From contig JANQKP010000009.1 of assembly GCA_028281045.1 (NCBI GenBank), positions 129,673 through 193,672 of the forward strand: a stretch of DNA of 64,000 bases, in the 5' to 3' direction. The notes beneath the pieces are model-generated. The model was given only the letters and a program-made list of their open reading frames with translations, ran no database searches and was not told the origin of the DNA. Shown here piece after piece: positions 13,073 to 44,596 of this stretch. A program made the translations under genes and the position numbers. Source of the stretch: Candidatus Altimarinota bacterium. GTDB lineage: Bacteria > Patescibacteriota > Gracilibacteria > UM-FILTER-43-11. Position 1 is the first letter of the stretch, and every line of letters starts with the position of its first letter.

Positions 13073-15160
13073 TTACGCCATTCCGCGTTCTTCTTTAATC
13101 TTCTCAGCTACATTGTTTGGAACTTTAGAGTAATCTGCAAATTCCATAGTGTAAGAAGCGCGACCTTGGGTCATAGAGCGAAGGTCTGTTGCGTATCCGA
13201 ACATTTCAGATAGAGGCACTTTAGCAAGAATCGTTTTAGCTTGTCCACGATCTCCCATTTCAGAGATTTGTCCACGTTTAGAGTTAAGGTCTCCCATAAC
13301 ATCTCCCATGAAATCTTCTGGAGTTACTACTTCTACTTGCATCATAGGCTCTAGAAGTACTGGCTTAGCTTTAGCTGCTGCTTCACGGAAACAAGTAGAG
13401 GCTGCCATCTTGAAGGCAAGTTCAGATGAATCCACATCATGGTAAGAACCATCGTATACTTCAGCGATTACATCTACCACTGGGTAACCAGCAATGATCC
13501 CACGAGTAACGGCTTCATTGATCCCTTTTTGTACTGCAGGGATGTATTCTTTAGGAATGCGTCCTCCAACTACAGAATCTTTGAATTCGATACCTTTACC
13601 AGGTTCATTTGGTTTAAATCTCATAAGTACGTGTCCGTATTGACCACGACCACCAGTTTGCTTTTGGTACTTGTGTTCTTCTTCAACTTCTTGTTGAATC
13701 GTTTCACGGTAAGCTACTTGTGGTTTACCAATGTTTGCTTCCACTTTGAACTCACGTTTCATACGATCTACAAGTACTTCTAGATGAAGTTCACCCATTC
13801 CAGAGATGATCGTTTGATTGGTTTCTTCGTCAGAGCGAACGGTGAATGTAGGATCTTCTTCAGCTAGCTTTTGAAGTGCAAGACCCATTTTTTCTTGGTC
13901 TCCTTTAGAGGCTGGTTCAACAGCAATAGAGATTACTGGATCTGGGAATTCAATCGATTCAAGAATCACACGTTCTTTTCCTTCTTCTACGAAGGTATCT
14001 CCAGTACGTACGTCTTTAAGGCCAATAACCGCCCCAATGTGTCCCGCAGGGATTTCTTGGATTTCTTCACGGTCATTCGCGTGCATTTGCACAAGGCGTC
14101 CAATACGATCTTTCTTATCTTGTGAAGCGTTGTAAACGTAAGAACCAGATTTAAGTACTCCAGAGTACACACGTACGAACGTAAGACGCCCTACGAATGG
14201 ATCTGTAGCAATCTTAAACGCAAGCGCTGCAAGAGGTTCATTGTTGTCTGCTTTACGTGCAATTTCAGTTTCTTCATCACCAGCAAGATGTCCTTTAACT
14301 GGAGGAATATCTAGTGGAGATGGAAGGTAATCATTTACCGCATCTAGAAGAAGCTGTACCCCTTTATTCTTAAGGGCAGTACCGGTAAGTACAGGTACGA
14401 ATTCATTAGCAATTACCGCGCGGCGGATTGCTGCTTTAAGCTCTTCAACAGTGAAGTCTTCACCTCCTAGGTATTTTTCCATGAACTGTTCGTCTCCTTC
14501 GGCTACTTTTTCAAGCATTTTACCTCTCCATTCTTCAGCAGTAGCTTTCATGTCTTCAGGAATGTCAGTCACTTCCATTTCTTTACCAAGATCATCTTTG
14601 TAGATGGTTGCTTTCATTTCAACAAGATCAATAAGCCCTTGGAAATCAGCCTCGTTTCCAATTGGGTATTGAATAGGAGCTGTTTTAGTCGTAAGACGAT
14701 CTACAATAGATTGGAAAGAGCGTTCAAATGAAGCTCCAGTACGATCTAGTTTATTAATGAAACACATACGTGGCACTTCGTACTTATCGGCTTGTCTCCA
14801 TACGGTTTCAGATTGTGGTTCTACACCAGCTACACCATCGAATACAGTTACCCCTCCATCAAGTACACGCATAGAGCGTTCTACTTCAGCCGTGAAATCC
14901 ACGTGACCTGGAGTATCAATAATATTGTATTGGTGACCTTTCCAGAAACAAGTCGTTGCTGCAGAGGTGATCGTAATACCACGTTCTTGTTCTTGTTCCA
15001 TCCAGTCCATAGTGGCTTCACCTTCATGCACTTCACCAATTTTGTAAGTTACACCGGTATAATAAAGAATACGTTCCGTACAAGTCGTTTTACCCGCATC
15101 AATATGGGCAATAATTCCGAAATTACGAATCTTATTTAAATCATCAATTCTTTCTGACAT
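13073..15160 (-). CDS. fusA: elongation factor G
   Basis: 695 aa with [14 protein letters not shown] and NKLD motifs and full EF-G domain order. Confidence 0.98.
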
Positions 15161-15263: not shown

Positions 15264-18188
15264 TTAGCTTCCGCAGCTACCCGTAGCGCTTGCTGCCGTA
15301 ATGGTATTTTGCCCTGTATAGGTACCACTCGCTACGCTTTCTGGAAGTTGAATTCCGAAGTAAACCGGGTCGCTTCCCGCGTTATTCGTATTGATATCAC
15401 GAACAGGAACGTTGTTGTTAATACAATCTTGGCTCGCAGAAAGGTTTACAGAGCTACCAGAACCATAGTTGGTTGAAGCCGTTTCGCTAAACTCTTGTTG
15501 GCTCACCGAGAAGCTGTCTCCAGAACATACGGTGTACGGTGTTCCCCAGTTATTACACATGTCTGTTCCGTATAGGTAAGTGTCGAAACTGGTGTTTCCT
15601 ACGTTGGCAATGTAGAACACTTCAGAAAGGGTTCCTGTGTCTCCTCCAGGAGCAAGCGTTCCATATTGTAGGTCTGTATTAGAAGTTCCATCACTCGCAT
15701 CACGAGTATCCAGAGCCAGAAGCTCTGCCACCGTGTGCGTTAGCGTGCTCACTGTTTGTGAATCGCTGAAGGCAAATAAACCTCCTTTATCAGCTGAATA
15801 AATCGCGGCGGTCCATCCAGAAGAAGGGGCAATGTTAAATTGCACATCTACATCACAGGTCACCGTGTAGTTTTCATCTGTACCGGCACCACTTTGATTA
15901 GAAAGTGTGCAGCCAAATACATCGTAACACTCCTGCTGGGCATCTGTATTGGTTCCCGTATCGGTAACACAATCCACAGTCCCTTCGTCATTACCTTCGT
16001 CGGCAGCATTGGCATCGTATATGGCTCCAATGGTGGTCACCACATCGTCGTCACCATTGTTATCACTCACCTCAGCAGACCACACAAAGTTCGTTGTGGT
16101 TCCAGCGGTTGGATTAAAGTCTCCAGAGCCATCTCCTGTAATGGTGAATGAATTTAGCACCGGAGCTACATTTGCAACGGTATATTGATAAAAAATAACT
16201 TCAATATCATCGAAGAAAGCGGTGCTACCTGAGCTAGCTCCACATCCAATACCTAGATTTAGATCGCTCGCAATAGCTCCTGTAACAGCGAATCTTGTCC
16301 AGGTCGTAGAGGTAGTAATAGGGGTAGTTGCTCCAATACCTGATACAAAGGCACAACCTCCTGCCCCATTTGTTTTCGCCCAACCTGTAACCGTTGCTGT
16401 CACTCCAGCCGTTCCAACAGATTGTGTGGCAGTAAAGTCTGCACTGGTACTAGCTACGCTAAGCGATTGAGACCCAGAACCTCCTGTTCTTTCGTCAGCT
16501 ACTTTTGAAAGCGTTCCAGAACCAGAAGTTCCCCAAGCTGTGGTTCCTGCAGCTTCCATATCTCCATCGGTTACTGTTGGATCAGATGGCTTAGAAACCC
16601 CGTAAACCACTACAGGAGTATTGGCAGAATGAGACTCACTGAGCCCTGTTACCCCATCGAGAGATGAGCCTGTATTTTTACCTGTGTAAGATGCCTTCTC
16701 TTTTCCAACAACTACATCACCAGAACTTGGGAATAAAGTAGTTGAAGACATCACGAGTGAGGTTTGCACCGTAGTCGATGGGAAAGCCAGCCATTGCACT
16801 TCATTAAATTCTCCGCGTTCTTCATGCTCATCCCATACAAAGTATTCTACAGAGTTTGCTCCTGCTGCCGTTGGAATTGGAGCTAAATCAGTATCGTCAC
16901 AGTAAATATTTCCACTTCCATCAATGTTTCCTGTTGTGGTTCCTCCAGAAAGGGTTGCCCCAGAAAGACTAAGGGCAGAAGAACTTTCAGAAACCGCAAT
17001 GCTGTTTCCAGCCGTTCCAGGCTCTACAGCCACAATATCAAGTTCAGTATCATCTACCACTGTTCCTTTTATAACAAAGACATCACTCGTATTGATTGTC
17101 TGAAGAATGCGATCTGTTAAACAATTCAGGGTTGAACATCCATCAGTCGCAATTTCAGTCGCCCCACCGGTCACAATACCGTTAGCAGAAGGGTCAAATT
17201 CATATACGTCTCCATTAATGGTTAGGGTGTCTCCATCGGCTGGCTGACCCGAAAGCGTAATGGTTGCGTTCGCCATAGAATGACTCACCCCAGTTTCACT
17301 ACAAAGCAGGGTTCCTCCACTACATGGACTTGTAGGATCTGCTGTATTAAACGTTGATCCGTCAGTACAAACCGCAAAGTTCAGTTCATCGGCACCACCA
17401 TAGTAATCGTAATCATAAACTTTGGCGTAGAAACGAACCGTTTCTCCTGGCTCAATCGTTCCACCAGAAGTGTCAGTGGCTCCATAACTTTCTACAATAG
17501 GAGCATGATTAACGTTCATTTCAGAGTTCGTGCTATTTCCTGAAGAACATTCTCCACTTGAATTATGGTCACAAGCAAAAGCATTCCACTGACCGCCTTC
17601 ACCCGTAGCATTTGAAGCATCTAACGTACAGGTTGTTGCTGTTCCAGAGCTTGTTTGGCTAGATACACAATACTGGAAAAGGGTACAAGTCGGAGCTGCA
17701 CTGGTTCCCGCAATCGCAGGCCCAATAAGACAAGCGGTTAGGTAATAATCATCTGTATTATCATCTGTCGCGGTAGCAATCCAAGTTCCAGTATCTCCGA
17801 AATCAATCGGATTATTCGCATCGGCCGCTAGGTAAACCGTATCATTATCTGAGTGAGCTGAAGAAACATTAGAAACTCCAGTCAGCGTGGTTGCTGTTTT
17901 ACCGGTATAGGTAATGTCCTGCTCATCATTGATTTTAATCGTCCCACCGCTGGCATTGAATCCGGCAGTGCTATCCACAGTAATCGTGGTTGCACCTCCT
18001 GAAATTCCCCCATCGAGCTGTGTCGTGGTTTTGTAATCGAACGGATCCAAATCAAAAGTTGGAGCCACATTCGCTGTATCTAGCGAAGTTCCGGTGTCAT
18101 CCGCGATAACGTCGAAAGAGGCTGTTCCCACTAGTAGGATCAGTGCAAGAAAGCCAGTTAAGAAAGAGGCTAAGTTGTAATTTTTCAT
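15264..18188 (-). CDS. giant secreted surface protein (974 aa), mosaic paralog of 18254-21208
   Basis: Signal peptide. A repeated 'STAGF..GGTI.I.DE..ITYTGKT.T.L.GV....AH' motif. A central block resembling CBM4/9 (DGDMEAAGTTAW...SQSL...FDDIEV). Conserved C-terminal ~170 aa ending in SCGS. Confidence 0.8.
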   Translation of the reverse strand: MKNYNLASFLTGFLALILLVGTASFDVIADDTGTSLDTANVAPTFDLDPFDYKTTTQLDGGISGGATTITVDSTAGFNASGGTIKINDEQDITYTGKTATTLTGVSNVSSAHSDNDTVYLAADANNPIDFGDTGTWIATATDDNTDDYYLTACLIGPAIAGTSAAPTCTLFQYCVSSQTSSGTATTCTLDASNATGEGGQWNAFACDHNSSGECSSGNSTNSEMNVNHAPIVESYGATDTSGGTIEPGETVRFYAKVYDYDYYGGADELNFAVCTDGSTFNTADPTSPCSGGTLLCSETGVSHSMANATITLSGQPADGDTLTINGDVYEFDPSANGIVTGGATEIATDGCSTLNCLTDRILQTINTSDVFVIKGTVVDDTELDIVAVEPGTAGNSIAVSESSSALSLSGATLSGGTTTGNIDGSGNIYCDDTDLAPIPTAAGANSVEYFVWDEHEERGEFNEVQWLAFPSTTVQTSLVMSSTTLFPSSGDVVVGKEKASYTGKNTGSSLDGVTGLSESHSANTPVVVYGVSKPSDPTVTDGDMEAAGTTAWGTSGSGTLSKVADERTGGSGSQSLSVASTSADFTATQSVGTAGVTATVTGWAKTNGAGGCAFVSGIGATTPITTSTTWTRFAVTGAIASDLNLGIGCGASSGSTAFFDDIEVIFYQYTVANVAPVLNSFTITGDGSGDFNPTAGTTTNFVWSAEVSDNNGDDDVVTTIGAIYDANAADEGNDEGTVDCVTDTGTNTDAQQECYDVFGCTLSNQSGAGTDENYTVTCDVDVQFNIAPSSGWTAAIYSADKGGLFAFSDSQTVSTLTHTVAELLALDTRDASDGTSNTDLQYGTLAPGGDTGTLSEVFYIANVGNTSFDTYLYGTDMCNNWGTPYTVCSGDSFSVSQQEFSETASTNYGSGSSVNLSASQDCINNNVPVRDINTNNAGSDPVYFGIQLPESVASGTYTGQNTITAASATGSCGS

Positions 18189-18253: not shown

Positions 18254-21208
18254 CTAGCTTCCGCAACTATTTGTGGCAGAGGCCGCCGTCACTGTGTTTT
18301 GCCCGGTGTAAGTACCACTGGCTACGCTTTCTGGAAGTTGAATCCCAAAGTAGATAGGATCATTACCAGCAAAGTCTGTATTCAGACCCCTTACAGGAAC
18401 ATCGTTGTTAATACAATCAGCCGAGGTATTTACAGAGTTTCCTGAGCCGTAATTTGTAGAAGCTGTAGTTGAATACTCTTGTTGAGATGCAGAGAAGCTA
18501 TCTCCACTACACACGGTGTATGGAGTTCCCCAGTTATTACACATGTCTGTTCCAGAAATTTGAGTGTCTAAAGCAACGTTTCCGTAATTAGCAATATAGA
18601 ACACTTCGGAAAGGGTTCCTGTGTCTCCACCAGGAGCTAGTGTTCCATATTGAAGATCTGTATTTGTTGTTCCATCCGTTGCATCACGAATATCTAGCGC
18701 TAGAAGCTCTGCTACTGTGTGAGTAAGAGTATTTAACGTCTGAGAATTATCAGAGTCTTGATTTCCTCCACCATCTTGCATGATTTGCCAAGCCACCCAG
18801 TTAGAACTTGGAGCAATATTGAAGTGGGTATCCACGCTACAATTAATGGTTCCATTTACGTCTGTTCCAGAACCCACATCAGAGAAGGTACAAATGCCTA
18901 AGCCCACAGAATAACATTCCTGTTGTGCATCTGTATTCGTACCGGTATCTGTGACACAATTTGAGTTCCCTTCGTCATTTCCTTCGTCTGCAGCATCGGC
19001 ATCATAAATTCCACCAAGGGTCAGGCTTACATCATTGTCACCATTGTTATCACTATAAGATACAGACCAGCTGAAGCTAGTGGTGGTTCCCGCCGTTGGG
19101 TTAAAGTCCCCACTTCCATCCCCTGTAATGGTGAACGTATTAAAGGTTGGGGCTACATTCTCTACGTTATATTGATAGTAACTAACTTCAATATCATCAA
19201 AATTAGCTGTGTTTCCTGAGCTCGCTCCACAACCAAGTCCAAGATTAAGGTCACTAGAAACAGCTCCTGTTATTGAGAAGTAGGTCCAAGCGCCTGCCGT
19301 AGTGATGATGAGAGGTGCTCCTGTGAACGAGGCAAAGGCACAACCTCCAGATCCAGCTTTGGCCCAACCCGAAACATTAATCACTTGCCCCGCATCTCCC
19401 ACTGATTGAATCGCGGTTACATCCCCACTGGTACTCGTAAGTTGAAGAGACTGAGATCCAGAACCACCAGTTCTTTCATCGGCTACTTTGGCTAGTGTTC
19501 CCGTTCCCCCGGCGGTCCATGCTGTAGTCCCAGCAGCCTCCATATCACCATCGGTAACAGGGTCTACATCGTATTTCGTATCTGAATAAATATAAACAGG
19601 TTCATTTTCACTATGTTCCATGTCTAGCGTTCCAGAAAGTCCATCTAGAGTAGTTCCGCTATTTTTACCACTGTAAGTCACTTGCTCGTGCCCTACTACA
19701 ATGGTTCCAGAGCTTGGGAAAAGACTCGAGTCATCAACGGTAAGTGTATCTGCCCCTTCATCTACAGGAGCTGCAAGGCGCGTATTTTGTTGAAAATTAG
19801 CAACATATTCATGTTCATCCCACACAAAATATTCTACGGGGTATGCCCTTCCAGGAGTTGGAATTGGTGTAAGCGACTGAGTGTCATCACAATATACTTC
19901 ACCCGTAGCACTTACGGTTCCACTGGTTGTTCCACTAGAAAGTGTTGCTCCAGAAAGGGTGATGTCATCCACACCAGGATCAGATTCTGTCATAGCGACA
20001 CTATTTCCTCCAGTCCCTGGAGTCACTGCTACAATTTGAACTACACTTGGGTAAACCCCTGGTCCTTTTATGGCAAACGTATTATCTGAAGTGTAAGCAT
20101 TAATAAATTCATCTGTCGTGTCATTTCCTGAGGTGATTCCATTGGTATCCACCTCTGTATTTCCACCACTCACCCCATCATTACCAGTATCGAATTCATA
20201 AGTAATTCCATCGATGGTCACGGTGTCTCCATCTTCTGGAACATTGTTGAAAGTAATGGTTCCCGTAGCAGGCGTAATCACAATATCTGTAGCAGAACAA
20301 ATTTCAGTACTTGCCCCACAAGGATCTGAAAGATCCGAAGTATTTAGAGTGGCCCCATCTGCACAGATGGCCATATTAATTTTGTCTGTTCCCCCTTCTA
20401 AATTAATATCTCTTACAGTGGCTTTAAAACGCACCGTATCTCCTGGTTCAATGGTTCCATCTGAAGTATCTGTGGCCGTGAAAGATTCAACCACAGGACG
20501 GAAGTTACCAACCCAATTTGCATTTACGCTATTGGCTGAAGAACAAGCAGAATCTGAAGATCTGTCATCACAAACATATCCATAGAACTCAGCAGACTCC
20601 CCTTGAGAATTTGGAGCTATATCATAAGAACAAGAGTCTAAAGTAATTTCTGAACCACTGGCTGTAGTAGCAGAATTACACCAGAAAAGTGAGAAAGGAC
20701 ACTGCCCAGCAGCGCTAGCCTGTGGCACAATTGTAGGAGTTGGGAAGAAACAAGAGGTAAAGAAATAACTATCTGTATTCTGATCCGTTGCTTTTGCTGT
20801 CCAATAACCTGTTCCATTAAAATTCACAGGGTTATTATTATCATTTGCAAGATACACAGTCGCATTATCAGAGTGAGCCGAAGAAACATTAGAAACTCCT
20901 GTCAGCGTGGTTGCGGTTTTTCCTGTGTAAGTAATGTCTTGCTCATCATCAATCTTAATCGTCCCTCCATCAGCATTGAATCCAGCGGTACTGTCTACAG
21001 TAATTGTGGTTTCACCTCCAGAAAGTGCGCCATCAAGCTGTGTTGTTAGCACATAATCAAACGGATCCAGATCAAAAGCTGGAGCTACGTTAGAGGTGGT
21101 AAGAGTTGTTCCTGTATCGTCCGCAATAACGTCGAAAGGGGCTGTTCCCATTAGTAGGATCAGGGCAAGAAAGCCAGTTAAAAAAGAGGCCAGGTTGTAT
21201 TTTTTCAT
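18254..21208 (-). CDS. giant secreted surface protein (984 aa), mosaic paralog of 15264-18188
   Basis: Same architecture as the 974-aa paralog. The N-terminal ~120 aa, the central CBM-like block and the C-terminal ~170 aa are conserved, and the segments between them are divergent. Confidence 0.8.
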   Translation of the reverse strand: MKKYNLASFLTGFLALILLMGTAPFDVIADDTGTTLTTSNVAPAFDLDPFDYVLTTQLDGALSGGETTITVDSTAGFNADGGTIKIDDEQDITYTGKTATTLTGVSNVSSAHSDNATVYLANDNNNPVNFNGTGYWTAKATDQNTDSYFFTSCFFPTPTIVPQASAAGQCPFSLFWCNSATTASGSEITLDSCSYDIAPNSQGESAEFYGYVCDDRSSDSACSSANSVNANWVGNFRPVVESFTATDTSDGTIEPGDTVRFKATVRDINLEGGTDKINMAICADGATLNTSDLSDPCGASTEICSATDIVITPATGTITFNNVPEDGDTVTIDGITYEFDTGNDGVSGGNTEVDTNGITSGNDTTDEFINAYTSDNTFAIKGPGVYPSVVQIVAVTPGTGGNSVAMTESDPGVDDITLSGATLSSGTTSGTVSATGEVYCDDTQSLTPIPTPGRAYPVEYFVWDEHEYVANFQQNTRLAAPVDEGADTLTVDDSSLFPSSGTIVVGHEQVTYSGKNSGTTLDGLSGTLDMEHSENEPVYIYSDTKYDVDPVTDGDMEAAGTTAWTAGGTGTLAKVADERTGGSGSQSLQLTSTSGDVTAIQSVGDAGQVINVSGWAKAGSGGCAFASFTGAPLIITTAGAWTYFSITGAVSSDLNLGLGCGASSGNTANFDDIEVSYYQYNVENVAPTFNTFTITGDGSGDFNPTAGTTTSFSWSVSYSDNNGDNDVSLTLGGIYDADAADEGNDEGNSNCVTDTGTNTDAQQECYSVGLGICTFSDVGSGTDVNGTINCSVDTHFNIAPSSNWVAWQIMQDGGGNQDSDNSQTLNTLTHTVAELLALDIRDATDGTTNTDLQYGTLAPGGDTGTLSEVFYIANYGNVALDTQISGTDMCNNWGTPYTVCSGDSFSASQQEYSTTASTNYGSGNSVNTSADCINNDVPVRGLNTDFAGNDPIYFGIQLPESVASGTYTGQNTVTAASATNSCGS

Positions 21209-21286: not shown

Positions 21287-21315
21287 TTGATTTTTCACCC
21301 GTTTTTTGGTATAAT
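21287..21315 (+). promoter_or_regulatory. sigma70-like promoter of 21358-24076 unit
   Basis: TTGATT (21287-21292), a 17-nt spacer, then TGgTATAAT (-10 at 21310-21315). Confidence 0.55.
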
Positions 21316-21357
21316 TATTAGATTTCTTTTTTATAGAAATCTTCGCGAAAAATAAAA

Positions 21358-23310
21358 ATGAAAAAACTAAATGCCATCATTGCGACCTTTATTGTGCTTT
21401 TTGTACAAAGCAATGTATGGGCATATCCACTTACAAGCACCACGTACCAAATCGACATGAGCACCATAGATGGTGGAGGTACGGTTTCTTCTAGTTCTTC
21501 GTATAAATCTAACCATACGATTCTAGGAACTTTTGGAGGTGGACAAGACATTTCAACGAGTTACAAACTGGATACCGGTCTTGTGAATTTAGAACTTTTC
21601 TGTGGAAACGGAATCTACGAATTCGGAGAACAGTGTGATGATGGAAATAACATCAACGGAGATGGATGTTCTAGCACTTGTCAGACCGAAACCGTGACTG
21701 CCATTTGTGGAAACTTTGTGATTGAAACCGGAGAGCAATGTGATGATGGAAACACCAACAACCTAGATGGTTGTTCTTCAACGTGTCAGACCGAAGGCGG
21801 TGGAGGCGGTGGAGGATCCGGAGGTGGAGGTGGAGGCTCTATCTGTGGTAACGGATTCAAACAAGGTGGAGAACAATGTGATGATGGAAATAACATCAAT
21901 GGAGATGGATGTTCTAGTATTTGTACCATTGAAGCCAGTGTTTGTGGAGATGCTGTTATTGAAGCCTCTGAGCAATGTGATGACGGAAACCTAGATGACT
22001 TTGATGGCTGCTCTGCCCAATGTCTTTTAGAAACCCCAGAATGTGGAAATGGTCATATTGAAACGGGCGAAGTTTGTGATGATGGAAACACTATTTCTGG
22101 AGATGGGTGTTCTAGTACTTGTAACTTTGAATTTGGAATCCCAATTTGTGGAAATGGAATCCAAGAAACCGGAGAACAATGTGATGATGGAAACACCACG
22201 AGCAATGACGGATGTTCTAACATCTGTGAATTTGACGAAGTGCTTCCGGAACCTGAGCCAGAGCCAGAACCGGAACCAGAACCTACCCCGCCAACTCCAG
22301 AACCGGAGCCGGAACCAGAAGAGCCACTACTGCCAGCAGCACCTGAAGTGCCTGTGGTAGATGATGGAGATGATCTTCCACCAGAAGTGGAAGAACAAGT
22401 GGGAACAAGCCCGTATCTACTAGATACCGATCAAGATGGACTTCCAGATAACGTGGAATGTCCAAACGGTGAGCAAGTTGATACCGATGGTGTAGGGATC
22501 TTTGACTGTCTTGATACGGATTCAGATAATGATGGGATCTCTGACGGAGTCGAAGGAAATGTCGATACCGATGGAGATGGAGTACCAAACTACCAAGACC
22601 GCGATTCGGATAACGATGGCGTAGAAGATATCCTAGAAGGTCTGTTTGATAACGATGGAGATGATATTCCAAATTACATCGATGCGGACTCTCAAACGGA
22701 ACTTGGAAATACCTTCCTAGAAAACGATCAAGATGGAGATATTATCGACTACGTAGACATCAAAAACGAATTTGAACTCGATACCAACCTAATCATCAAA
22801 GTGAAGGAGGTATTAGATCCTAGATCCCCTCACCCAATCCGTAATTTCTTCATTAAAGCGCGTCCTGAAAAACGTGTAAATGCAGAGGAAAACTGGGATA
22901 CATTCAGTGACATTACGTTCTATAACAGAGGAACTGGCGAAGAAGATCTTCTGACCGTTCTAAACATGAGTATTCGTGGTCTAAGTGGGCTTATAACCAA
23001 CGTTATTCCAAATGGAACTTATGACGTTGCCTTCAAAGGACACTCTCACCTCACGAAATTCATTCGTGGTGAAAAAATTGATGGAAATAAATACATTCTC
23101 GACTGGACCTTTGACGACGACTTCTTCCTATACGCTGGGGATGTACAAGATCAGAAAGATGACTTCGTAAATGGTCTAGACTTCTCAGCGATGAAGAACC
23201 AAATCTATACCGGAAACTTCGATGCAGATCTGAATGAAGACGGCATCGTAAATGGTCTAGATCTATCGATCGCTCTAGAAAACATTTATAGAAGCGGAGA
23301 AACGTTATAA
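21358..23310 (+). CDS. secreted Cys-rich-repeat / Ca-binding-repeat protein with C-terminal dockerin-like module
   Basis: 650 aa. Signal peptide. Six copies of CGNGxxExGEQCDDGNxxxGDGCSSxC (Myxococcus-type cysteine-rich repeat). Gly13/Ser run. PEPEPE linker. DxDxDGxxD thrombospondin-3-like repeats. C-terminal ...DLNEDGIVNGLDLSIALENIY. Confidence 0.85.
   Translation: MKKLNAIIATFIVLFVQSNVWAYPLTSTTYQIDMSTIDGGGTVSSSSSYKSNHTILGTFGGGQDISTSYKLDTGLVNLELFCGNGIYEFGEQCDDGNNINGDGCSSTCQTETVTAICGNFVIETGEQCDDGNTNNLDGCSSTCQTEGGGGGGGSGGGGGGSICGNGFKQGGEQCDDGNNINGDGCSSICTIEASVCGDAVIEASEQCDDGNLDDFDGCSAQCLLETPECGNGHIETGEVCDDGNTISGDGCSSTCNFEFGIPICGNGIQETGEQCDDGNTTSNDGCSNICEFDEVLPEPEPEPEPEPEPTPPTPEPEPEPEEPLLPAAPEVPVVDDGDDLPPEVEEQVGTSPYLLDTDQDGLPDNVECPNGEQVDTDGVGIFDCLDTDSDNDGISDGVEGNVDTDGDGVPNYQDRDSDNDGVEDILEGLFDNDGDDIPNYIDADSQTELGNTFLENDQDGDIIDYVDIKNEFELDTNLIIKVKEVLDPRSPHPIRNFFIKARPEKRVNAEENWDTFSDITFYNRGTGEEDLLTVLNMSIRGLSGLITNVIPNGTYDVAFKGHSHLTKFIRGEKIDGNKYILDWTFDDDFFLYAGDVQDQKDDFVNGLDFSAMKNQIYTGNFDADLNEDGIVNGLDLSIALENIYRSGETL
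23128..23307 (+). other. dockerin-like duplicated EF-hand segment (domain-level call)
   Basis: GDVQDQKDDFVNGLDFSAMKNQIY followed by DADLNEDGIVNGLDLSIALENIY. The second repeat fits DxNxDGxVNxxD, and the first is degenerate. Confidence 0.55.
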
Positions 23311-23335
23311 AATATAAGCAAATTACTAAATTAAA

Positions 23336-24076
23336 ATGAAAACGCTCAAATCAATTGCCATCGCGCTTATGCTCACTCTAGGGCTCACGCAAACCGCTTC
23401 TGCGGCTAGCCTAAGCCTAGATCCGGCTAAAGCCACCTTTAATCCAGATTGTCACTCTGTGGTGCATGTTTACCTGCACACAGAAGGTGAAGAATCTAAT
23501 GCCGTAGACGCTTTTCTTAGATTCGATGAAGATCAACTGCGTTTTAAAGACCAAATCGACAACAAAGAAGGGATACAAACCTTCCCCACAGGGCTTTATG
23601 AAGCTTATCCAGGAAATGAAGTAGAAGACGGTGCTATTCGTATTACCGGCTTCAATGACAAAGACTTTTTCCTAGGAGAGGGCCACTTTGCCAGCCTTGT
23701 ATTTAAGCCCAAAAGAGGGGTTGAAGAAGCTCAAATTAGCTTTGAATTCATCGAAGATGAGACCAGAGACTCCAATGTCGCGGATATTAACTCTTTAGAT
23801 GTCCTAAGAGCCGTTAAAAACGGGGAATATAAATTCGCTGAAAACGGTGAATGTGGCGACGAAGTCTATCCAAGTCTTGTAGATGGGGTTTTCCAGTCTG
23901 CAGAAGGTCTATTTGGCGCAGCGAGAAGCCCTATTTGGACGTGGTTTTGGATTCTTCTACTCCTGAGCTTAATTGGAAACTTCTTCTTCCTATTTGGAAA
24001 ACACTTTGTGAGCATCAACTTCGATGTTCGTAAGATCAGAAAAACCCGAAAAACAGCCAAAAAGAAGAAAAAATAA
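23336..24076 (+). CDS. membrane-anchored cohesin-like protein
   Basis: 246 aa. Signal peptide (…TQTASA). Cohesin-like pattern LSLDPAKATF…VVHVYLHTEGEESNAVDAFLRFDEDQLRF…GAIRITGF…GHFASLVFKPKRGVEEAQISFEF. C-terminal TM helix (IWTWFWILLLLSLIGNFFFLF) and a Lys/Arg tail. Confidence 0.75.
   Translation: MKTLKSIAIALMLTLGLTQTASAASLSLDPAKATFNPDCHSVVHVYLHTEGEESNAVDAFLRFDEDQLRFKDQIDNKEGIQTFPTGLYEAYPGNEVEDGAIRITGFNDKDFFLGEGHFASLVFKPKRGVEEAQISFEFIEDETRDSNVADINSLDVLRAVKNGEYKFAENGECGDEVYPSLVDGVFQSAEGLFGAARSPIWTWFWILLLLSLIGNFFFLFGKHFVSINFDVRKIRKTRKTAKKKKK
23408..23831 (+). other. cohesin-like beta-sandwich module (domain-level call)
   Basis: See the CDS evidence. This is pattern recognition only, without a profile search. 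Confidence 0.55.
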
Positions 24077-24105: not shown

Positions 24106-24139
24106 CAAAAAGGTCAGTCCAAAAAACTGGCCTTTTTTG
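24106..24139 (+). terminator. intrinsic terminator after 23336-24076
   Basis: Stem GGTCAGT (24112-24118) pairs with ACTGGCC (24127-24133), including one G-U pair. TTTTTT follows. Confidence 0.7.
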
Positions 24140-24208
24140 TAATTTTCTAGCTTTTTTAAGCCAAAAAATAAGCTTATTTGACACATGCAAAAAAGGGGTC
24201 TAAAACAC

Positions 24209-24237
24209 TTGATTTTTCTCTCTAAATTTGATATAAT
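24209..24237 (+). promoter_or_regulatory. sigma70-like promoter of 24256-28339 unit
   Basis: TTGATT (24209-24214), a 17-nt spacer, then TGaTATAAT (24232-24237). The -35 context cTTGATTTTTc is the same as at 21287. Confidence 0.55.
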
Positions 24238-24255: not shown

Positions 24256-25911
24256 ATGCAAAATAAAAACCAAAAAATAACATCGGTTTTAGTAGCACTT
24301 CTTGTGTCTACAGCTACCCTTATGGGTGCTGTGGCTACAACAGTGCAAGCAGCGACTACGACTCCTGGTACAATTGCGTATCAAGGGCGTCTTTTAGATT
24401 CTTCTAGCGACCCCCTAGCGGGAAGCTATACGTTCCGTTTCTCTATCTGGAGTGACGCAGATTCTGATGCTACAGACTATCTTGGTTCTGGAGCCATTGA
24501 TCCTGCAGCTACTGGATACGAAGGATGGACTGAAGAACACGCGGTAACCACAGATGCTTTTGGTCTATTCGACGTAGATCTTGGTTCTATTTTGACACTT
24601 CCTAACTTCACTGCAGCCACTCACACCTACCTGCAAGTAGACGTAAAAGTAACTGGAGCAGCAGACACCACGTACGAGGTGCTAGATCCAGATACTTCAA
24701 GCGCTGTGATTGATCGTAACGTTCTACACAAGAAAGCTTACGCGGAAAACGCAGACACGGTAGATAACGCCGACGTAGGTACTGCGGCTGGAAACCTAGC
24801 CACTCTTGGAACCGGAGGCGTATGGGACATTGCCGTTATGGGTTCTGGAACGAACGCAGACACGTTCATCATCGATGATAACGACGATGGCGCAACGTCT
24901 GGAATTCAGTTCGGTTCAGATGGGACCGATGGTTCAATTACGTTCACCAATGCTACTGGTGATATCACAATTACCACTCCAGATGACTCTGATCTTGTGA
25001 ATATAGATAACGCCACGTTAACTTCAACCTCTGACGCCGGTCTAGACTTTGGAACTTCAGATACCTTCCGCATTCGTGAGGCAAGTGACCCAAATACAAA
25101 TGCAGCTTGTACGTATGTACGTGAGCTCATTATGAACACTGCCGATGGCATGCTTATGCGTTGTACAGGAGTTGGAGTAGCTGGAGTAGCCACTTGGACC
25201 AACATAGATACCACAGGAGGTTCTGTGGACTTTGAAGGACTATTTGCTAACGATGCAGATGACACGCTAACGACTTCAAATTCAGACTTCACGATTAACT
25301 CTGGAACAGGAGATACAATCATCACTTCAAACGACTGGGGAGTAGATGCTAGTGGTAACATCACCACAAATGGAACGGTAGATGGAGTAGATCTTCAATC
25401 GATTCCATTTGCGAATCTAGCCACCCGCGCTAAAGAGCTTGTATTTAGCCCTGAATATCCGAATTTTGCTGTAGAACAAGACGGAACAGCGAACAAAGGA
25501 AAAATGGAAGTATTCTTCGTAGATGACGGAGGTGCTGCGAAGCGTAATTACTACAACTTCACGACTAGAAATGGGTCTATCCAAGACATGTACGTAACGC
25601 TTTCATTCCAACTGCCTCTGGACTTCGTTTCATTCACAGGGGCTCCGCTGAATGTGAACTACCAAACAAGTGATGGGGTGATTACAACCAATCAAGTTGA
25701 TATTGAGCTGTACGACACAACCGGAACCGCTGTTGCTCTAACAGGAGGTTCTGACCTAGCTAATGCCGCTTGGACCAATGCTGCTATTACTTTTGGTGGA
25801 GGTGAAACCTTTACCGCTGGTTCTACAGTAACCATGAAACTACTACTTCAATCTACAAGTAGTGGATTTGCTCGTATTTCAGACATCGTCTTTAACTACA
25901 ACGGACGCTAG
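24256..25911 (+). CDS. secreted fibre-like surface protein (551 aa)
   Basis: Signal peptide (…TTVQA). N-terminal 'IAYQGRLLDSSSDPLAGSYTFRFSIW' unit typical of tail-fibre-like proteins. FRIRE…C…DT…C…W module. The C-terminal ~170 aa are homologous to 26201-28339. Confidence 0.8.
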   Translation: MQNKNQKITSVLVALLVSTATLMGAVATTVQAATTTPGTIAYQGRLLDSSSDPLAGSYTFRFSIWSDADSDATDYLGSGAIDPAATGYEGWTEEHAVTTDAFGLFDVDLGSILTLPNFTAATHTYLQVDVKVTGAADTTYEVLDPDTSSAVIDRNVLHKKAYAENADTVDNADVGTAAGNLATLGTGGVWDIAVMGSGTNADTFIIDDNDDGATSGIQFGSDGTDGSITFTNATGDITITTPDDSDLVNIDNATLTSTSDAGLDFGTSDTFRIREASDPNTNAACTYVRELIMNTADGMLMRCTGVGVAGVATWTNIDTTGGSVDFEGLFANDADDTLTTSNSDFTINSGTGDTIITSNDWGVDASGNITTNGTVDGVDLQSIPFANLATRAKELVFSPEYPNFAVEQDGTANKGKMEVFFVDDGGAAKRNYYNFTTRNGSIQDMYVTLSFQLPLDFVSFTGAPLNVNYQTSDGVITTNQVDIELYDTTGTAVALTGGSDLANAAWTNAAITFGGGETFTAGSTVTMKLLLQSTSSGFARISDIVFNYNGR

Positions 25912-26200: not shown

Positions 26201-28339
26201 ATGAACACGCTAAATAAAATTACGCGTCGTATCAGCGGTCTAATGGCTGTCCTTATGCTCACTATGAGCTTCTCAGGACATGCTCAGGCACGTATTCTCT
26301 TCCAAGATGACACCTTCCATGATGTGGAATCTGAAGGTATGATCATCAACTTCGATGACGGAGGTGACGAAGATGTAACGTTACAATTCGGTAACGATTC
26401 AACTGACGCCTCAATTCGTTTCGATGATGGAGACACAAGTCTACATTTCGAGAATACAGAAGTAGACTTCTCTACGGTAAATAACTTCCGTATTAGAGAA
26501 GATGCTGACCCTGCTACGAATGCAGCTTGTGATCACCTAGGTGAACTTATTTATGACACTGGATCAAGTGAGCTTCAAATTTGTACCGTAGTAGGTGCTG
26601 CTGGGGCTGCAACATGGTCTGCCGTTGACTCTCCTGCTGGTGCAGTAGATTTCGAATCTGTTTACACTACAGATGGAGATGACACGCTTACTACTTCTAA
26701 TGGTAACTTCTCTATTGCCGCTGGTACTGGAGACGTTAATGTTGATGCAGACTCTATCTCTCTAGATGGGACTAACGCTTCAAACCTTTCAGTTGCTACT
26801 GATGCTGCTGCTGAGGATCTAACCATTGAAGTAACTGGTGCTACTAACTCTAGTTTAGTACTACAATCTACTGGTACCGGTACTGATGCTATCGATATTA
26901 ATTCTACCGCTGGTGACATTGATATTGATGCTTCAGGTGATAACGCCATCACTATTGATGCGACTGAATCATCTAACTTAACCGTTACTTCAGATGCAGC
27001 TGGTGAAGATCTAACGATCGCACAAGCTGGTGGTACTGACTCAAGTCTAGTACTTAATACATCTGGTACTGGTACTGATGCATTAGACATTAATGCTACA
27101 GGTACTGGTGGTGGAATCGATGTAGATACCACTGACGGTGCTATTACTATTAATGCTGCTGGTGGGACCAATGGTGATGTAACTATTGGATCTGCTGACG
27201 ATACAGCTATTACTTCTGGTGGACTTGTAGACATTGATGCTACTGAAGCCCTTTCTATCAACTCTTCTGGTGGAGTGATTAACATCGGTGACGATGCTGT
27301 TGCTCAAAACATCAACGTTGGTACTGGTGCTGCTGCTAGAACCCTTAACATTGGTAATGCTACTGGTGCTACCGCTGTTAACATCGATGCAGGTACTGGT
27401 GGATGGAGTATTGACGGTGCTGGTGCATCTAACATCACCACAACTGGTGCTGCTTCTGATATCACTTTCGCTTCTGGACGTGACATCATCTTCGATGATG
27501 ACAACCTAACGGGTACTGTTGTACTTAGTGTGGCTGATTCAGATTGGGATGCTGACTTCACTGGAGACGGGATCATCGACAACATCAATGATGTTGCTAC
27601 TGCTCTAGGAGCTGATGGTCTTACTTCTCTAGCGTTTAACTTCACTGAAGCAAATGTACTAGCAGATAATGATGCTGTTTACGCAGCTCTTGAAAAACTA
27701 GACCTTAGATGGGGAGACCTTGCTTCTACCGCTAATGGTGAAGGTGCTTCACTAGTTGGAATTGAAGATTCAGGAGGTAACTTCACAGCTACTAACGTAG
27801 AAGGTGCACTTAGTGAACTTGCTGCTGATATTGGAAACACTTACGATCAAATGGTATTCGAACCTGAATATCCTAACTACGTAGTATTCCAAGACGGTTC
27901 TGCTAACAGAGGTAAGCTAGAAGCTCTTTATGACTCTACTAACCGTGAACACTATTACACTTGGACTACTCGTCAAGCTGCTGATCAAGACGTAGATATT
28001 CGTTTCAGATACGAACTACCTACTGATTGGAATGCTACTGGTAATCTAGTGATCCGTTTCAGAACAGGTCTTACTACTGCTGCTAATAACACGCTTGCAG
28101 TGACTGTTCGTAATGATACCGATGACACCACTTGTCATGCAGATGCCGCTACTGCAGGTACTGTAGCTGATACTTGGGAAGACCTAACCATTACAGCTGG
28201 TGAAATTAATACTGGTTGTACTGCTGGTGCTGCCCTTGCTGCTGGAGACACAGTTGAAATTCAACTGAAACTTCTTGCAGATAATACAGCTTCTGCTAAG
28301 ACAGATGTTGGTACAATTGACTGGGATTATACTAAATAA
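26201..28339 (+). CDS. secreted beta-helix-like repeat surface protein (712 aa), AHA-RILF family
   Basis: Signal peptide ending GHAQA|RILF. N-terminal LQFG module. FRIRE…C…DT…C…W module. About 300 aa of T/D/G/A/I-rich short repeats. The C-terminal domain is homologous to 24256-25911 (VFEPEYPNYVVFQDGSANRGK…). Confidence 0.8.
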   Translation: MNTLNKITRRISGLMAVLMLTMSFSGHAQARILFQDDTFHDVESEGMIINFDDGGDEDVTLQFGNDSTDASIRFDDGDTSLHFENTEVDFSTVNNFRIREDADPATNAACDHLGELIYDTGSSELQICTVVGAAGAATWSAVDSPAGAVDFESVYTTDGDDTLTTSNGNFSIAAGTGDVNVDADSISLDGTNASNLSVATDAAAEDLTIEVTGATNSSLVLQSTGTGTDAIDINSTAGDIDIDASGDNAITIDATESSNLTVTSDAAGEDLTIAQAGGTDSSLVLNTSGTGTDALDINATGTGGGIDVDTTDGAITINAAGGTNGDVTIGSADDTAITSGGLVDIDATEALSINSSGGVINIGDDAVAQNINVGTGAAARTLNIGNATGATAVNIDAGTGGWSIDGAGASNITTTGAASDITFASGRDIIFDDDNLTGTVVLSVADSDWDADFTGDGIIDNINDVATALGADGLTSLAFNFTEANVLADNDAVYAALEKLDLRWGDLASTANGEGASLVGIEDSGGNFTATNVEGALSELAADIGNTYDQMVFEPEYPNYVVFQDGSANRGKLEALYDSTNREHYYTWTTRQAADQDVDIRFRYELPTDWNATGNLVIRFRTGLTTAANNTLAVTVRNDTDDTTCHADAATAGTVADTWEDLTITAGEINTGCTAGAALAAGDTVEIQLKLLADNTASAKTDVGTIDWDYTK

Positions 28340-28523: not shown

Positions 28524-30215
28524 ATGCTTCAAAAACAAAAACTAAAAAAACAATTCATCGGCCTTGTGATTTTGGCTTTGGTAAGCGCTTTATCGCCAAA
28601 TTCAGCCCATGCAAGAATCCTGTTCGTGGATGATGTTTTTGAAAACAATTCCGAGATCTATGAAATTGGAGCTAATGATGATGCCGCAGGAACCAATTTA
28701 ACGCTGCAATTTGGAGGAACCAACGGAGAAACTCTAAATTGGGATTCTGGAGATAGTCGTTTTGAACTCAGTGATGACTTTGGAGTAGAAGGAACCACCC
28801 TGTATTTAGATGCCTCAAATACCACTACAGATAATGACGTGGACATTATTGCCAACCAAGGGCTAGATGCTAACGGAACGCTGAGATACAGCGCCACCAA
28901 TGACCGATGGGAGCTGAATAACGATGGAAATGGCTTTGTAGGAATTGCCAGTAATTTAGATGACGCTTATAACTATTTTGGGGCGAACGCCTCTACAATT
29001 ACCGTAGATGCCGCCGAGTCTCAAACCGGTGGCTTGCAATTTGTGGGGTCCCTAGCAGGAGATGAAACCGTAACCATTTCAAACAGTGGTGCTGGAGGAG
29101 GACTACTGGTAGAAAACACGGGTTCTGGGACCAGTTTCCAGGTGAATGACGTCGCATCAGACACTACCCCATTCATCATCGATACCGATGGAAGCGTTGG
29201 AATAGGGCTAACGGATCCTACTCAAATTCTTGAGGTTCAAAATACAGGATCTGCCTTTAACGAAGCAGCCTACGCAACAACCAGAGTATCCACCACGGGA
29301 ACGGGGGCTGCAGGATTTGGGCCTTCTATTTGGCTCGATGGAGACTCTTACACCAGCGGAGGGAACTTTATTTTGGCGGCCACGGCAGGATCTGATGTTT
29401 CTGGTGCAGGAAACTTTTTAATCTATGATTTTGGAGCCGCCACGGGACGCTTTACTATTGATGCTGCTGGAGAAATTGGAATAGGTGGAGAACTTGCTCC
29501 AGCCCATGCACTAGACATCACCGGAACAGGTGAGGTGATTGAAATTGGAGATGGATCAGCGAGTGATTTTATTATTAACTTCACCGATGGAACCGATAGA
29601 AATCTAGGCTGGGATGACTCCGAAGGTTCATTCTCTACTTTTGATAATGAACTTAGGTTTAGAACCCGGCAAAGCGCTACACCACCAGTAGCCTGTAGCT
29701 CCACGGTAGCCGGAATGCAGTGGATGGATACCGATAACGGAGTCACTTACAGCTGTGATACCAGTAATAGCCGCAACAAGTGGCTTTCTATGCAAGAATT
29801 CGTGATGTTTGGAGATGAATCTGGAACCTGTGACGCCGGGAATGACCCCAATAATGACGCCGATTGTAATGTGGACTGGGGGAATGGTCTGGGACCAGAT
29901 GGGGCCACGAATCTAGGGTTTTATATTCCTCAAAATATTACCCTTACAGGGTATGGATTCTCGGCCGATAATGATGCCTGTACCAGTGGTAATTTTGACC
30001 TAGAAGTGTGGAGCACTGGAAGCAATACAGATGATAACACCTACACCTTGGAGCAGACAGTAGCCGCTGCCCTAGACGGCGAAGCCCATAATTCTAATGT
30101 ATTAAATATAGATATTGCGGGAGACCAATACACTCTATGGGGACTTGATAATAATTGTGGCCAAGGAATCGATGACTGGAACGCTGTAATTTACTTCAGA
30201 TATCGGCATGATTAA
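28524..30215 (+). CDS. secreted surface protein (563 aa), AHA-RILF family
   Basis: Signal peptide MLQKQKLKKQFIGLVILALVSALSPNSAHA|RILFVDDVFENN. LQFG module. Cys-pair module (ACSSTVAGMQWMDTDNGVTYSCD). Cys-containing jelly-roll-like C-terminus. Paralog of 30363-32102. Confidence 0.85.
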   Translation: MLQKQKLKKQFIGLVILALVSALSPNSAHARILFVDDVFENNSEIYEIGANDDAAGTNLTLQFGGTNGETLNWDSGDSRFELSDDFGVEGTTLYLDASNTTTDNDVDIIANQGLDANGTLRYSATNDRWELNNDGNGFVGIASNLDDAYNYFGANASTITVDAAESQTGGLQFVGSLAGDETVTISNSGAGGGLLVENTGSGTSFQVNDVASDTTPFIIDTDGSVGIGLTDPTQILEVQNTGSAFNEAAYATTRVSTTGTGAAGFGPSIWLDGDSYTSGGNFILAATAGSDVSGAGNFLIYDFGAATGRFTIDAAGEIGIGGELAPAHALDITGTGEVIEIGDGSASDFIINFTDGTDRNLGWDDSEGSFSTFDNELRFRTRQSATPPVACSSTVAGMQWMDTDNGVTYSCDTSNSRNKWLSMQEFVMFGDESGTCDAGNDPNNDADCNVDWGNGLGPDGATNLGFYIPQNITLTGYGFSADNDACTSGNFDLEVWSTGSNTDDNTYTLEQTVAAALDGEAHNSNVLNIDIAGDQYTLWGLDNNCGQGIDDWNAVIYFRYRHD

Positions 30216-35300: not shown

Positions 35301-35397
35301 CACAGACGATATTCAACTGACGCATCAAATGAATGGAACCACTACAGGACAAACTGTACCTCAAGGTTCTGGACTTACTATTGAATTCATACGCTAG
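32341..35397 (+). CDS. giant secreted right-handed beta-helix protein (1018 aa as tracked), AHA-RILF family; true start probably upstream non-canonical
   Basis: From ATG 32341 the N-terminus (MVAQSPLAHA|RLIF) lacks an h-region. The in-frame upstream codons after the stop at 32290 read KIKTKQKIIGFLTLVL and contain only ATC/ATT as possible starts. Body: pectate-lyase-like beta-helix repeats (ITLLPGTHSISSTLTIDNDDIEIVGYG…NNIHGVRISGGDDNQVDNV), an internal second LQFG module, a Cys-pair module, and a C-terminal jelly-roll-like domain. Confidence 0.85.
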   Translation: MVAQSPLAHARLIFDNEFLIEYAGTGSTWIIDSQDDATGDIELQFGNDGTDGSIAWDITNNEFDIGSDFNLQQNQALNLVIDNRAGVAPATPVGGQIYHDTVSGNTFVRNGVSGQWEDVTDVNASQTKVVTVGTGLDYTTISAAATYLNGLSGGIMLLAAESHAVTTAVDLTNVTLIGKDADVTTIAISGSGQLDSFDTTFRNLTIDVNAITDDMAIDAQTGASSLFFEWVDFDVQDSGDSLIDSNAGAAPTVTVKIVNSEQVGTSGTILKTVASGNLNASSTVFISSASGNSLLEVSDWDVTVAGFGNVNTSGAITAIPNDTIVVYPGMNLQGAIDSITTGGSITLLPGTHSISSTLTIDNDDIEIVGYGDSSIISASGFSGITGTTAAIQVGAEDGSAAVDGTILRNFRLNVDTNNIHGVRISGGDDNQVDNVTVVKTAGTATTKSGIVILNSDAAQLVRPVVKDSRVSGTSGGGAYFTDGIELQLDNSTFGGTRGIVNALIDGNEVDYVGEDAFSVTGLENSSIYNNVATQMGQDGVATDSYGYYLEATNNINMNANLATGPARTDAIGIGIEPVNTGSLNETLDSIFAGNIIDGEENSGVGFQHGFMIGDTTNTGVHRNSFQNNSILGASATTTVAINIRGNADQNSFVGNNLSGGTNAWDTGISLASATQENNLVRGNRTNNVTTYSSDSSTALLRGVPQHQATADPTINDDVNDGYRIGTIWINTTSDETFVLVDETVGAAVWDNIADAGSAITGVNSNTFTLDQDDTGGDVTLQFGTSLAETLTWDNTNSEFDLSDDLNITGGLITSGNIDLNSNELIEARIENLGSAPTCNGANAGRLYHDTGDTFSYVCNGTGWQRIDNQPTTAVFDGYDNAGNTSVTTTEATLNIDSTNVSDANYTLASDVVTINTTGLYLVTARLTVDSNGTTGATRSSIQLRAEEDTGGGFTDIPGVICQDYMREQATGISSASCTVSFIRSFNATDDIQLTHQMNGTTTGQTVPQGSGLTIEFIR

Positions 35398-40558: not shown

Positions 40559-40563
40559 TTTTA

Positions 40564-41049: not shown

Positions 41050-41106
41050 TTATTTTTGTGTACTTTAAAAGTCACCGTGAATTATACACTAGTTCCCAGT
41101 GAAACA

Positions 41107-41613: not shown

Positions 41614-41631
41614 CTTTCTATTATATAAAGA

Positions 41632-44595: not shown

Positions 44596-44596
44596 T

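Follow-up and report, generated by a model that had tools for sequence, protein, structure and literature searches.

A secreted X-module-dockerin protein and its membrane-anchored cohesin-fold neighbour: a conserved gene pair and probable surface-tethering cassette in a Candidate Phyla Radiation bacterium

How is a secreted protein kept on the surface of the cell that made it? Two adjacent genes in a 64-kb stretch of contig JANQKP010000009.1 from a Candidatus Altimarinota bacterium (the whole stretch is called the window in the following) raise this question. A sequence-only reading had proposed that gene 2 encodes a membrane-anchored cohesin which displays a Ca-binding adhesin, the product of gene 1, through a type I dockerin at the C-terminus of the latter. 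The two open reading frames are indeed found on the plus strand, encode 650 and 246 residues and lie 25 nucleotides apart, and all peptide strings quoted in that reading occur in the translations. Our analysis indicates that the genes probably form a two-part surface-tethering cassette, in which an X-module-dockerin (XDoc) dyad of gene 1 acts as plug in the membrane-anchored cohesin socket of gene 2. In all likelihood, such a pairing fastens surface proteins to the cell and has no connection with the degradation of cellulose.

The strongest argument comes from the gene neighbourhood. No canonical dockerin Ca-loop motif other than that of gene 1, and no second copy of the gene 2 domain family, was found in the window, so that the two do not lie side by side simply because copies are numerous. 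Outside the window, five loci (L001 to L005, titled Peribacteria, Peregrinibacteria or Patescibacteria) were retrieved from the cohesin side with a six-sequence alignment. Their cohesin domains are 35-41% identical to gene 2, and a dockerin-type C-terminus is encoded directly upstream of the cohesin gene in all five. For L001 only the last residues of this upstream gene were visible; the same locus also retains both genes found downstream of the pair. The dockerin-side sample comprised eight distinct contexts among L006 to L014, at about 27-41% identity and with one protein named Moranbacteria. Here, too, a domain of the gene 2 family is encoded next door in every case, in seven of the eight directly downstream on the same strand and in some with reading frames overlapping by about 10 nucleotides. 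The remaining case is L011, where the cohesin-family gene is convergent and separated by one gene. Taken from both sides, genes for XDoc and cohesin domain were paired in 13 of 13 outside loci, the XDoc gene standing directly upstream on the same strand in 12, and hidden Markov models (HMMs) of the two families had no further match in ~129 kb of these loci. Adjacency maintained at such divergence argues that the two modules work together, and this functional link, already suspected in the sequence-only reading, is thereby strengthened. We take it to mean that XDoc and cohesin probably interact physically.

In distant relatives the division of labour is reversed. The XDoc is found there on a small secreted protein of about 160-260 residues without cargo, whereas the partner is a cohesin-first protein of 440-1200 residues with Big_5, CarboxypepD_reg or SdrD_B domains, usually anchored by a transmembrane (TM) helix. 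The conserved element is therefore the XDoc-cohesin joint itself, with the stalk on either partner. In these reversed pairs the N-terminal cohesin would sit at the distal end of the long partner. Other surface-related genes were observed near some distant pairs, namely a sortase gene in L008 (4694-5503) and L009 (4645-5454), and genes for WxL-domain surface proteins on a JGI contig and in L010 (125-709). They are a hint at other envelope-attachment systems nearby.

Judged by profile and predicted fold, the C-terminus of gene 1 is a type II-like XDoc dyad with X-module and dockerin as one unit. Residues 478-650 alone scored 23.7 bits (E 5.5e-5) with Pfam Dockerin_1 (PF00404, gathering threshold 22.9), and 25 of 30 relatives of this module matched the same model. 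When the single sequence was searched against the PDB, the best matches were all dockerins, headed by that of CelS (E 0.006), for which the alignment takes in both repeats. A profile of the module family retrieved the XDoc dyads 4wi0_B (E 3.4e-9), 5k39_B, 4u3s_B, 2b59_B and 3kcp_A (to 6e-8), in an alignment that extends over part of the beta-module and both dockerin repeats. AlphaFold2 modelled the C-terminal 173 residues with a predicted local distance difference test (pLDDT) score of 92.8 and a predicted template modelling (pTM) score of 0.86, as a beta-sandwich and, C-terminal to it, two helices (model residues 129-136 and 156-164), each after a loop. The ten best Foldseek matches of this model in the PDB were without exception type II XDoc dyads, with alignments of 162-173 columns, and were followed by a sharp drop to generic Ig-like folds. 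Identity to the solved dyads is 15-20%. Within the family, P, E and R of the X-module motif are invariant, and its K and a G-x-S-H-L motif nearly so. A word-index homologue search with residues 470-650 alone returned no relatives; it succeeded with an alignment of five orthologous XDoc modules, giving 69 hits, 19 of them with a precomputed PF00404 assignment.

Since profile and predicted fold both match XDoc dyads, the module is better described as such a dyad than as the bare type I dockerin of the sequence-only reading. The dockerin itself was thus recovered; its assignment to type I was not, as an X-module precedes it and the dyad is type II-like. A similar correction applies to the two EF-hand-like segments described there. 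The second Ca loop is canonical (D624-L-N-E-D-G-I-V-N-G-L-D635), whereas the first has 14 residues instead of the canonical 12 and 14-16 throughout the family.

For gene 2, the proposed cohesin-like module was recovered through its homologues and its predicted fold. An exhaustive HMMER search with gene 2 yielded 639 clusters at E <= 1e-3 and 167 at E <= 1e-10; a word-index search found a single relative, and NCBIfam gave no match. Nearly all relatives align to residues ~10-185, and the domain is usually N-terminal in secreted proteins of 200-1700 residues. Pfam Cohesin (PF00963) matched 22 of 60 relatives (best E 6.7e-14, several above the 24.1-bit threshold), and these matches coincide with the region homologous to gene 2. 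Big_5 domains were present in 29 of the 60. The ectodomain model, built with AlphaFold2 from a 37-sequence alignment, is all-beta and devoid of helix (pLDDT 93.9, pTM 0.88). Each of its 44 best Foldseek matches in the PDB was a cohesin, of type I, II or III (best E 7e-9, target-normalised TM-score 0.7-0.79), in agreement with the nine-stranded beta-sandwich (jelly-roll) of these modules. Type I cohesins are the closest and types II and III rank lower; among the matches are the Archaeoglobus cohesin 2xdh, 2jh2, 2vo8 and the ScaE-type cohesin 2zf9.

The gene 2 family shares an invariant D-S-N...D-x-L motif (D145, S146, N147, D155, L157) and a conserved pair of cysteines, Cys39 and Cys173, which could staple the first strand to the end of the domain. 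Invariant residues (AVDAF, YPGN, IRITGF, F136, D145-S146-N147) are concentrated on four of the predicted strands (3, 5, 6 and 8) and on the 8/9 loop. This position corresponds to the canonical dockerin-binding face of cohesins, in a comparison that does not separate surface from core residues.

The features proposed to anchor gene 2 were also found to be real. Besides the signal peptide, the TM helix is the only Kyte-Doolittle peak above 1.6, and it is followed by a tail of 25 residues of which 12 are Lys or Arg. Helix and basic tail recur in most relatives of gene 2, and the tail of close relatives contains a '(F)EKH / ENH' motif.

Gene 1 has no hydrophobic stretch other than its signal peptide. 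Residues 23-80, probably the distal tip, hold three 'S/T-S-x-Y' motifs and match the model for PamT, a protein to which we return below, weakly and in part (model positions 28-77). The Cys-rich repeats that follow are clearly recognized by PF13948 (E 1.9e-39, six stretches) and TIGR02232 (E 4e-65). Orthologues with the same architecture were found in L002 to L005; they lack the Pro/Glu-rich linker and the TSP3-like repeats, which are present in the window copy only. We could not substantiate that these repeats are Ca-binding, as the sequence-only reading had called them, since their TSP_3 match of 16.8 bits stays below the Pfam cutoff of 25. The label adhesin is likewise a guess, because DUF4215 / myxo_disulf_rpt repeats have no known function. 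The cargo may act in adhesion or as a matrix.

Together, these features suggest the following arrangement. Both products would be exported via Sec by their N-terminal signal peptides. Gene 2 would be held in the cytoplasmic membrane by its C-terminal helix, with the Lys/Arg tail inside as expected from the positive-inside rule, and would present one cohesin about 25 residues above the membrane. Gene 1 would be fully secreted, and its C-terminal XDoc would plug into this cohesin so that the C-terminus is held at the membrane. The rest of the protein, from the TSP3-like repeats over the Pro/Glu-rich linker and the Cys-rich repeats to the N-terminal tip, would then project outward through the wall. 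The contact may be Ca-dependent, with one canonical and one lengthened loop in the dockerin.

Several observations weigh against this arrangement. Gene 2 itself gave no Pfam match even at E <= 1, PF00963 and SLH included, so that the profile check suggested in the sequence-only reading was negative for the cohesin. Neither phmmer with gene 2 nor the family HMM retrieved a solved cohesin from the PDB sequences. The assignment of the ectodomain as a cohesin, although supported, thus draws on transitive homology and on a predicted fold. The same check was divided for the dockerin: full-length gene 1 reached 19.8 bits with PF00404, below the threshold that the module alone exceeded. The two-residue insertion in the first loop makes standard two-site Ca binding uncertain. 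The gene 2 model, without the helix and flaps of type II cohesins, best matches type I, yet its partner is type II-like. The cohesin-side partners in L006 and L014 have no C-terminal TM helix. Finally, the distant XDoc proteins carry no cargo; display of cargo fits the pair in the window but cannot be the whole story for the family.

Alternatively, the two genes might be merely co-expressed. The XDoc of gene 1 would then bind another cohesin or ligand on the cell or on a host, and gene 2 something else, for example a glycan. In favor of this are the missing direct Pfam Cohesin match of gene 2 and the resemblance of the cohesin fold, a beta-jelly-roll, to carbohydrate-binding modules. The cohesin family, with 639 clusters, also looks larger than the XDoc family with 69 hits, in searches that differ in sensitivity, and the size gap could reflect many cohesin-type domains without an XDoc neighbour of their own. 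Nevertheless, we consider mere co-expression unlikely. The adjacency was found from either side in all outside loci at 27-48% identity, with frames often overlapping or nearly abutting, and the window holds a single copy of each domain; conservation this tight would be typical of physically interacting pairs.

Two further explanations concern the way gene 2 is attached and what it does there. Its hydrophobic helix and positive tail resemble a Gram-positive sorting signal, by which the cohesin would end up covalently bound to peptidoglycan, as is ScaE in Ruminococcus flavefaciens. An 'L(K/R)PAAP'-like motif stands shortly before the helix in several relatives, and the sortase genes of L008 and L009 lie three genes from the pair. 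Gene 2, however, has no LPXTG-like motif and no sortase was seen among the open reading frames scanned in the window. Its 25-residue tail is long for such a signal, and the conservation of the tail motif in close relatives points to a retained, functional cytoplasmic tail on a stable TM anchor rather than to a cleaved sorting signal. Sortase attachment of gene 2 therefore appears improbable to us. The layout of gene 2 may also be compared to that of PamC, PamD and PamR, which likewise combine a signal peptide with beta domains and a TM helix at the C-terminus, and which belong with PamT, the proposed tip pilin, to the recently described Pam pilus of the Candidate Phyla Radiation (CPR) (10.64898/2026.03.03.709456). 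Gene 2 would be a membrane-anchored chaperone or terminator of such a donor-strand-exchange pilus and gene 1 its tip subunit. The N-terminus of gene 1 indeed scored 27.7 bits with the NCBIfam PamT model (23.5 without the signal peptide), covering ~50-70 residues. The model cutoff, at 240, is far higher, and the gene 1 orthologues, including the corresponding segments of L003 and L004, gave no match. The fold of gene 2 matches cohesins and not PapD-like or FnIII proteins, and no other Pam model matched any of the 15 neighbouring proteins scanned. On account of the low PamT score and the cohesin fold we rejected the Pam pilus, which we regard as a very remote prospect for this locus.

The tethering of gene 1 by the cohesin of gene 2 has parallels in known systems, and both modules belong to the known cohesin and dockerin/XDoc superfamilies. 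In the type III anchoring pair CttA-ScaE of Ruminococcus flavefaciens, the cohesin is anchored by its C-terminus, the binding modules lie at the N-terminus of the XDoc protein, and the complex shows mechanical ultrastability when loaded in this direction (PMC4266597). As proposed for our pair, a non-enzymatic protein with a C-terminal XDoc is held by a separate small protein with a single cohesin, and the gene 2 model also matches the ScaE-type cohesin. ScaE, however, is bound to peptidoglycan via a sortase motif; the corresponding features of gene 2 are a TM helix and a conserved basic tail, predicted to be cytoplasmic. Where gene 1 has Cys-rich DUF4215 repeats, CttA has modules that bind cellulose, and the host differs as well: our pair comes from a CPR-type organism, and the window showed no cellulolytic genes.

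The best match for the C-terminal 173 residues of gene 1, by profile and by fold, is the type II XDoc of Clostridium thermocellum (CipA XDoc with SdbA/OlpB/Orf2p) and Acetivibrio cellulolyticus (ScaA XDoc with ScaB), as seen in 2b59, 3kcp, 4wi0 and 5k39, where the X-module is packed on a two-repeat dockerin. Tethering of a secreted component to an envelope-anchored cohesin is the role of these dyads and is likewise proposed for gene 1, although the first Ca loop of the latter is lengthened. The type II anchors of these systems use SLH domains and type II cohesins, which possess an extra crowning helix between strands 6 and 7 as well as beta-flaps. This helix is what the type I-like model of gene 2 lacks. 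Nor does gene 2 use either of the attachments known from cellulosome anchoring scaffoldins such as SdbA/OlpB and ScaE, that is SLH or LPXTG.

Cohesins outside cellulose degradation are also found among the fold matches of gene 2, in Archaeoglobus fulgidus (2xdh) and Clostridium perfringens (2jh2, 2vo8). Non-cellulosomal cohesin- and dockerin-like modules were reportedly surveyed by Peer et al. in 2009 (ref 42 in PMC10066038), at a time when, to our knowledge, CPR genomes were not available. Such modules occur scattered, in many cases within a single protein or on glycoside hydrolases associated with toxins, and we know of no conserved two-gene cassette of an XDoc protein and a TM-anchored cohesin among them. 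Full-text searches on dockerins or cohesins in CPR, Patescibacteria, Saccharibacteria or Peregrinibacteria yielded no description of the pair. It differs from the known systems in the TM anchor, the combination of a type I-like cohesin with a type II-like XDoc, the long first loop, the non-enzymatic cargo, the two-gene cassette and the CPR host. An essential envelope protein with a dockerin domain, SEML1_0315, has been reported for the cultivated Saccharibacterium Southlakia epibionticum (PMC10633639). With 927 residues and no cohesin-type neighbour, it was rejected as a case of the same cassette.

The features of the pair are collected in Table 1. The promoter-like site before gene 1, with its extended -10 TG, and the terminator-like hairpin after gene 2 are both present as the sequence-only reading had described them. 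A plus-strand scan of the region found no other terminator-like hairpin, in particular none between the two genes. One transcription unit bounded by these two elements is plausible, but not statistically supported by the sites on their own. Its boundaries are not proven, because the total count of such consensus sites in the region is not above that of shuffled sequence. A site of the same promoter form (TTGATT, 17 nucleotides, TATAAT, TG before the -10 hexamer) was observed at 24209-24237, before the gene that follows the terminator, and a TTGATT-17-TAAAAT site precedes the cohesin gene in L001; the form may be the preferred type of the lineage. In the ~18 nucleotides before the ATG of either gene (21340-21357 and 23318-23335), both A/T-rich, no recognisable Shine-Dalgarno sequence was seen.

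Table 1. Positions of the two genes, their domains and the putative flanking transcription signals in the window
Feature	Positions	Strand	Basis
Plausible promoter, sigma-70-like, TTGATT-17-TATAAT with TG before the -10 hexamer, preceding gene 1	21287-21315	+	10/12 consensus matches
Gene 1, 650-residue secreted modular protein with C-terminal XDoc dyad (putative plug and cargo)	21358-23310	+	open reading frame and profile matches
Gene 1, signal peptide, residues 1-22, MKKLNAIIATFIVLFVQSNVWA	21358-21423	+	read from the sequence
Gene 1, N-terminal 'TSTTY...SSSSY...STSY' segment, residues 23-80, Ser/Thr/Tyr-rich	21424-21597	+	kept in the L003 and L004 orthologues
Gene 1, six Cys-rich acidic repeats (DUF4215 / myxo_disulf_rpt) with poly-Gly interruption, residues ~82-292	21601-22233	+	profile matches
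Gene 1, Pro/Glu-rich linker (residues ~295-325), then Asp-rich TSP3-like repeats (residues ~340-470)	22240-22767	+	sequence
Gene 1, X-module, predicted Ig-like beta-sandwich with invariant 'PEKR' motif, modelled from residue 478, strands in residues ~482-582	22789-23103	+	alignment, profile and model
Gene 1, dockerin, two loop-helix repeats (residues 594-617; residues 622-644 with canonical DLNEDGIVNGLD loop)	23137-23289	+	profile and model
Gene 2, 246-residue membrane-anchored single-cohesin protein (putative socket)	23336-24076	+	open reading frame, family and predicted fold
Gene 2, cohesin-fold ectodomain, residues ~24-175	23405-23860	+	conservation, confident model (pLDDT 93.9), PDB fold matches
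Gene 2, C-terminal TM helix (residues ~200-221) and predicted cytoplasmic tail	23933-24073	+	hydropathy
Intrinsic-terminator-like hairpin (24107-24137, 12-bp stem), then T-rich run	24107-24147	+	3' of gene 2

The window, with a G+C content of ~42%, is cellular DNA: it contains genes for EF-G, EF-Tu and RpoC, a type IV pilus cluster and a gene for a protein with SLH domains. Scans for tRNAs and Rfam families returned nothing relevant. The pair lies in a block of ~33 kb (7415-40020) that is made up of large secreted proteins without family assignment, includes several tandem paralogue pairs and is interrupted only by EF-G (13073-15160). Paralogues share 63% identity in 15264-18188 / 18254-21208, 59% in 28524-30215 / 30363-32102, 57% in 32341-35397 / 35398-38508 and 68% over the N-terminal ~300 residues in 7415-10045 / 10916-12952. 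The block resembles a rapidly evolving island of surface proteins. The next two genes after the pair (24256-25911 and 26201-28339) are paralogues of each other, with a 'FRIRE..DP.TNAAC' core and a C-terminal 'PEYPN...QDG.AN.GK' domain, and are syntenic with 1598-2932 and 3193-3528 of L001, downstream of the cohesin gene there. In the one of the two products that has 551 residues, the N-terminus weakly resembled the N-domain of the Bdellovibrio mosaic adhesive trimer fibre (23.2 bits, cutoff 60). An 876-residue secreted protein (7415-10045, minus strand) ends in Peptidase_S74, the intramolecular chaperone of endosialidase (E 1.4e-15); this domain is typical of trimeric phage tail-fibre-like proteins and is found here within a cellular surface-protein island. 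At its other end, the island closes with a 484-residue protein (38566-40020, plus strand) containing bona fide TSP3 repeats (E 9e-21) and DUF7467. It is followed on the minus strand by the type IV pilus cluster (40067-46489) with a T2SSE ATPase (44597-46489), a T2SSF platform protein (43519-44646) and at least six small open reading frames with 'GFTL(V/I)E' prepilin N-termini, three of which are nearly identical N-terminally (40067-41613). Further on, a protein with three SLH domains (51648-52757, minus strand, E 1.9e-35) points to wall-polymer anchoring as a further device of this organism, one that gene 2 does not use.

In conclusion, the cassette would provide a concrete rule for the way some CPR surface proteins are held, with a plug on one gene product and a socket on the next. 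The majority of CPR/Patescibacteria, a group that accounts for much of bacterial diversity, seem to live in attachment to other cells, and their surface proteins are for the most part unannotated. Our data would extend XDoc-cohesin anchoring well beyond the cellulolytic Firmicutes, with a TM anchor in the place of SLH domains or sortase, and would give a likely role to two families that Pfam largely misses, with 639 clusters in the cohesin family and at least 69 proteins in that of the XDoc. Both modules are small (173 and ~150 residues) and were modelled confidently, which makes them suited to binding and single-molecule force work. More tentatively, and with rather less confidence than for the cassette itself, the pair may represent a general surface snap-on joint of CPR/Patescibacteria, an ancient non-cellulolytic relative of the type II and III anchoring pairs that serves for mounting and exchanging stalks. 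If this is true, the joint would let wall-bearing, ultra-small cells without an outer membrane mount and exchange long surface stalks. With a pulling geometry as in CttA-ScaE, where the C-terminus holds the cohesin and the load enters at the N-terminus of the XDoc protein, it could also bear force in the attachment of an episymbiont to its host. The pair also bears on the question whether cellulosomal type II anchoring arose from a more general device of surface assembly.

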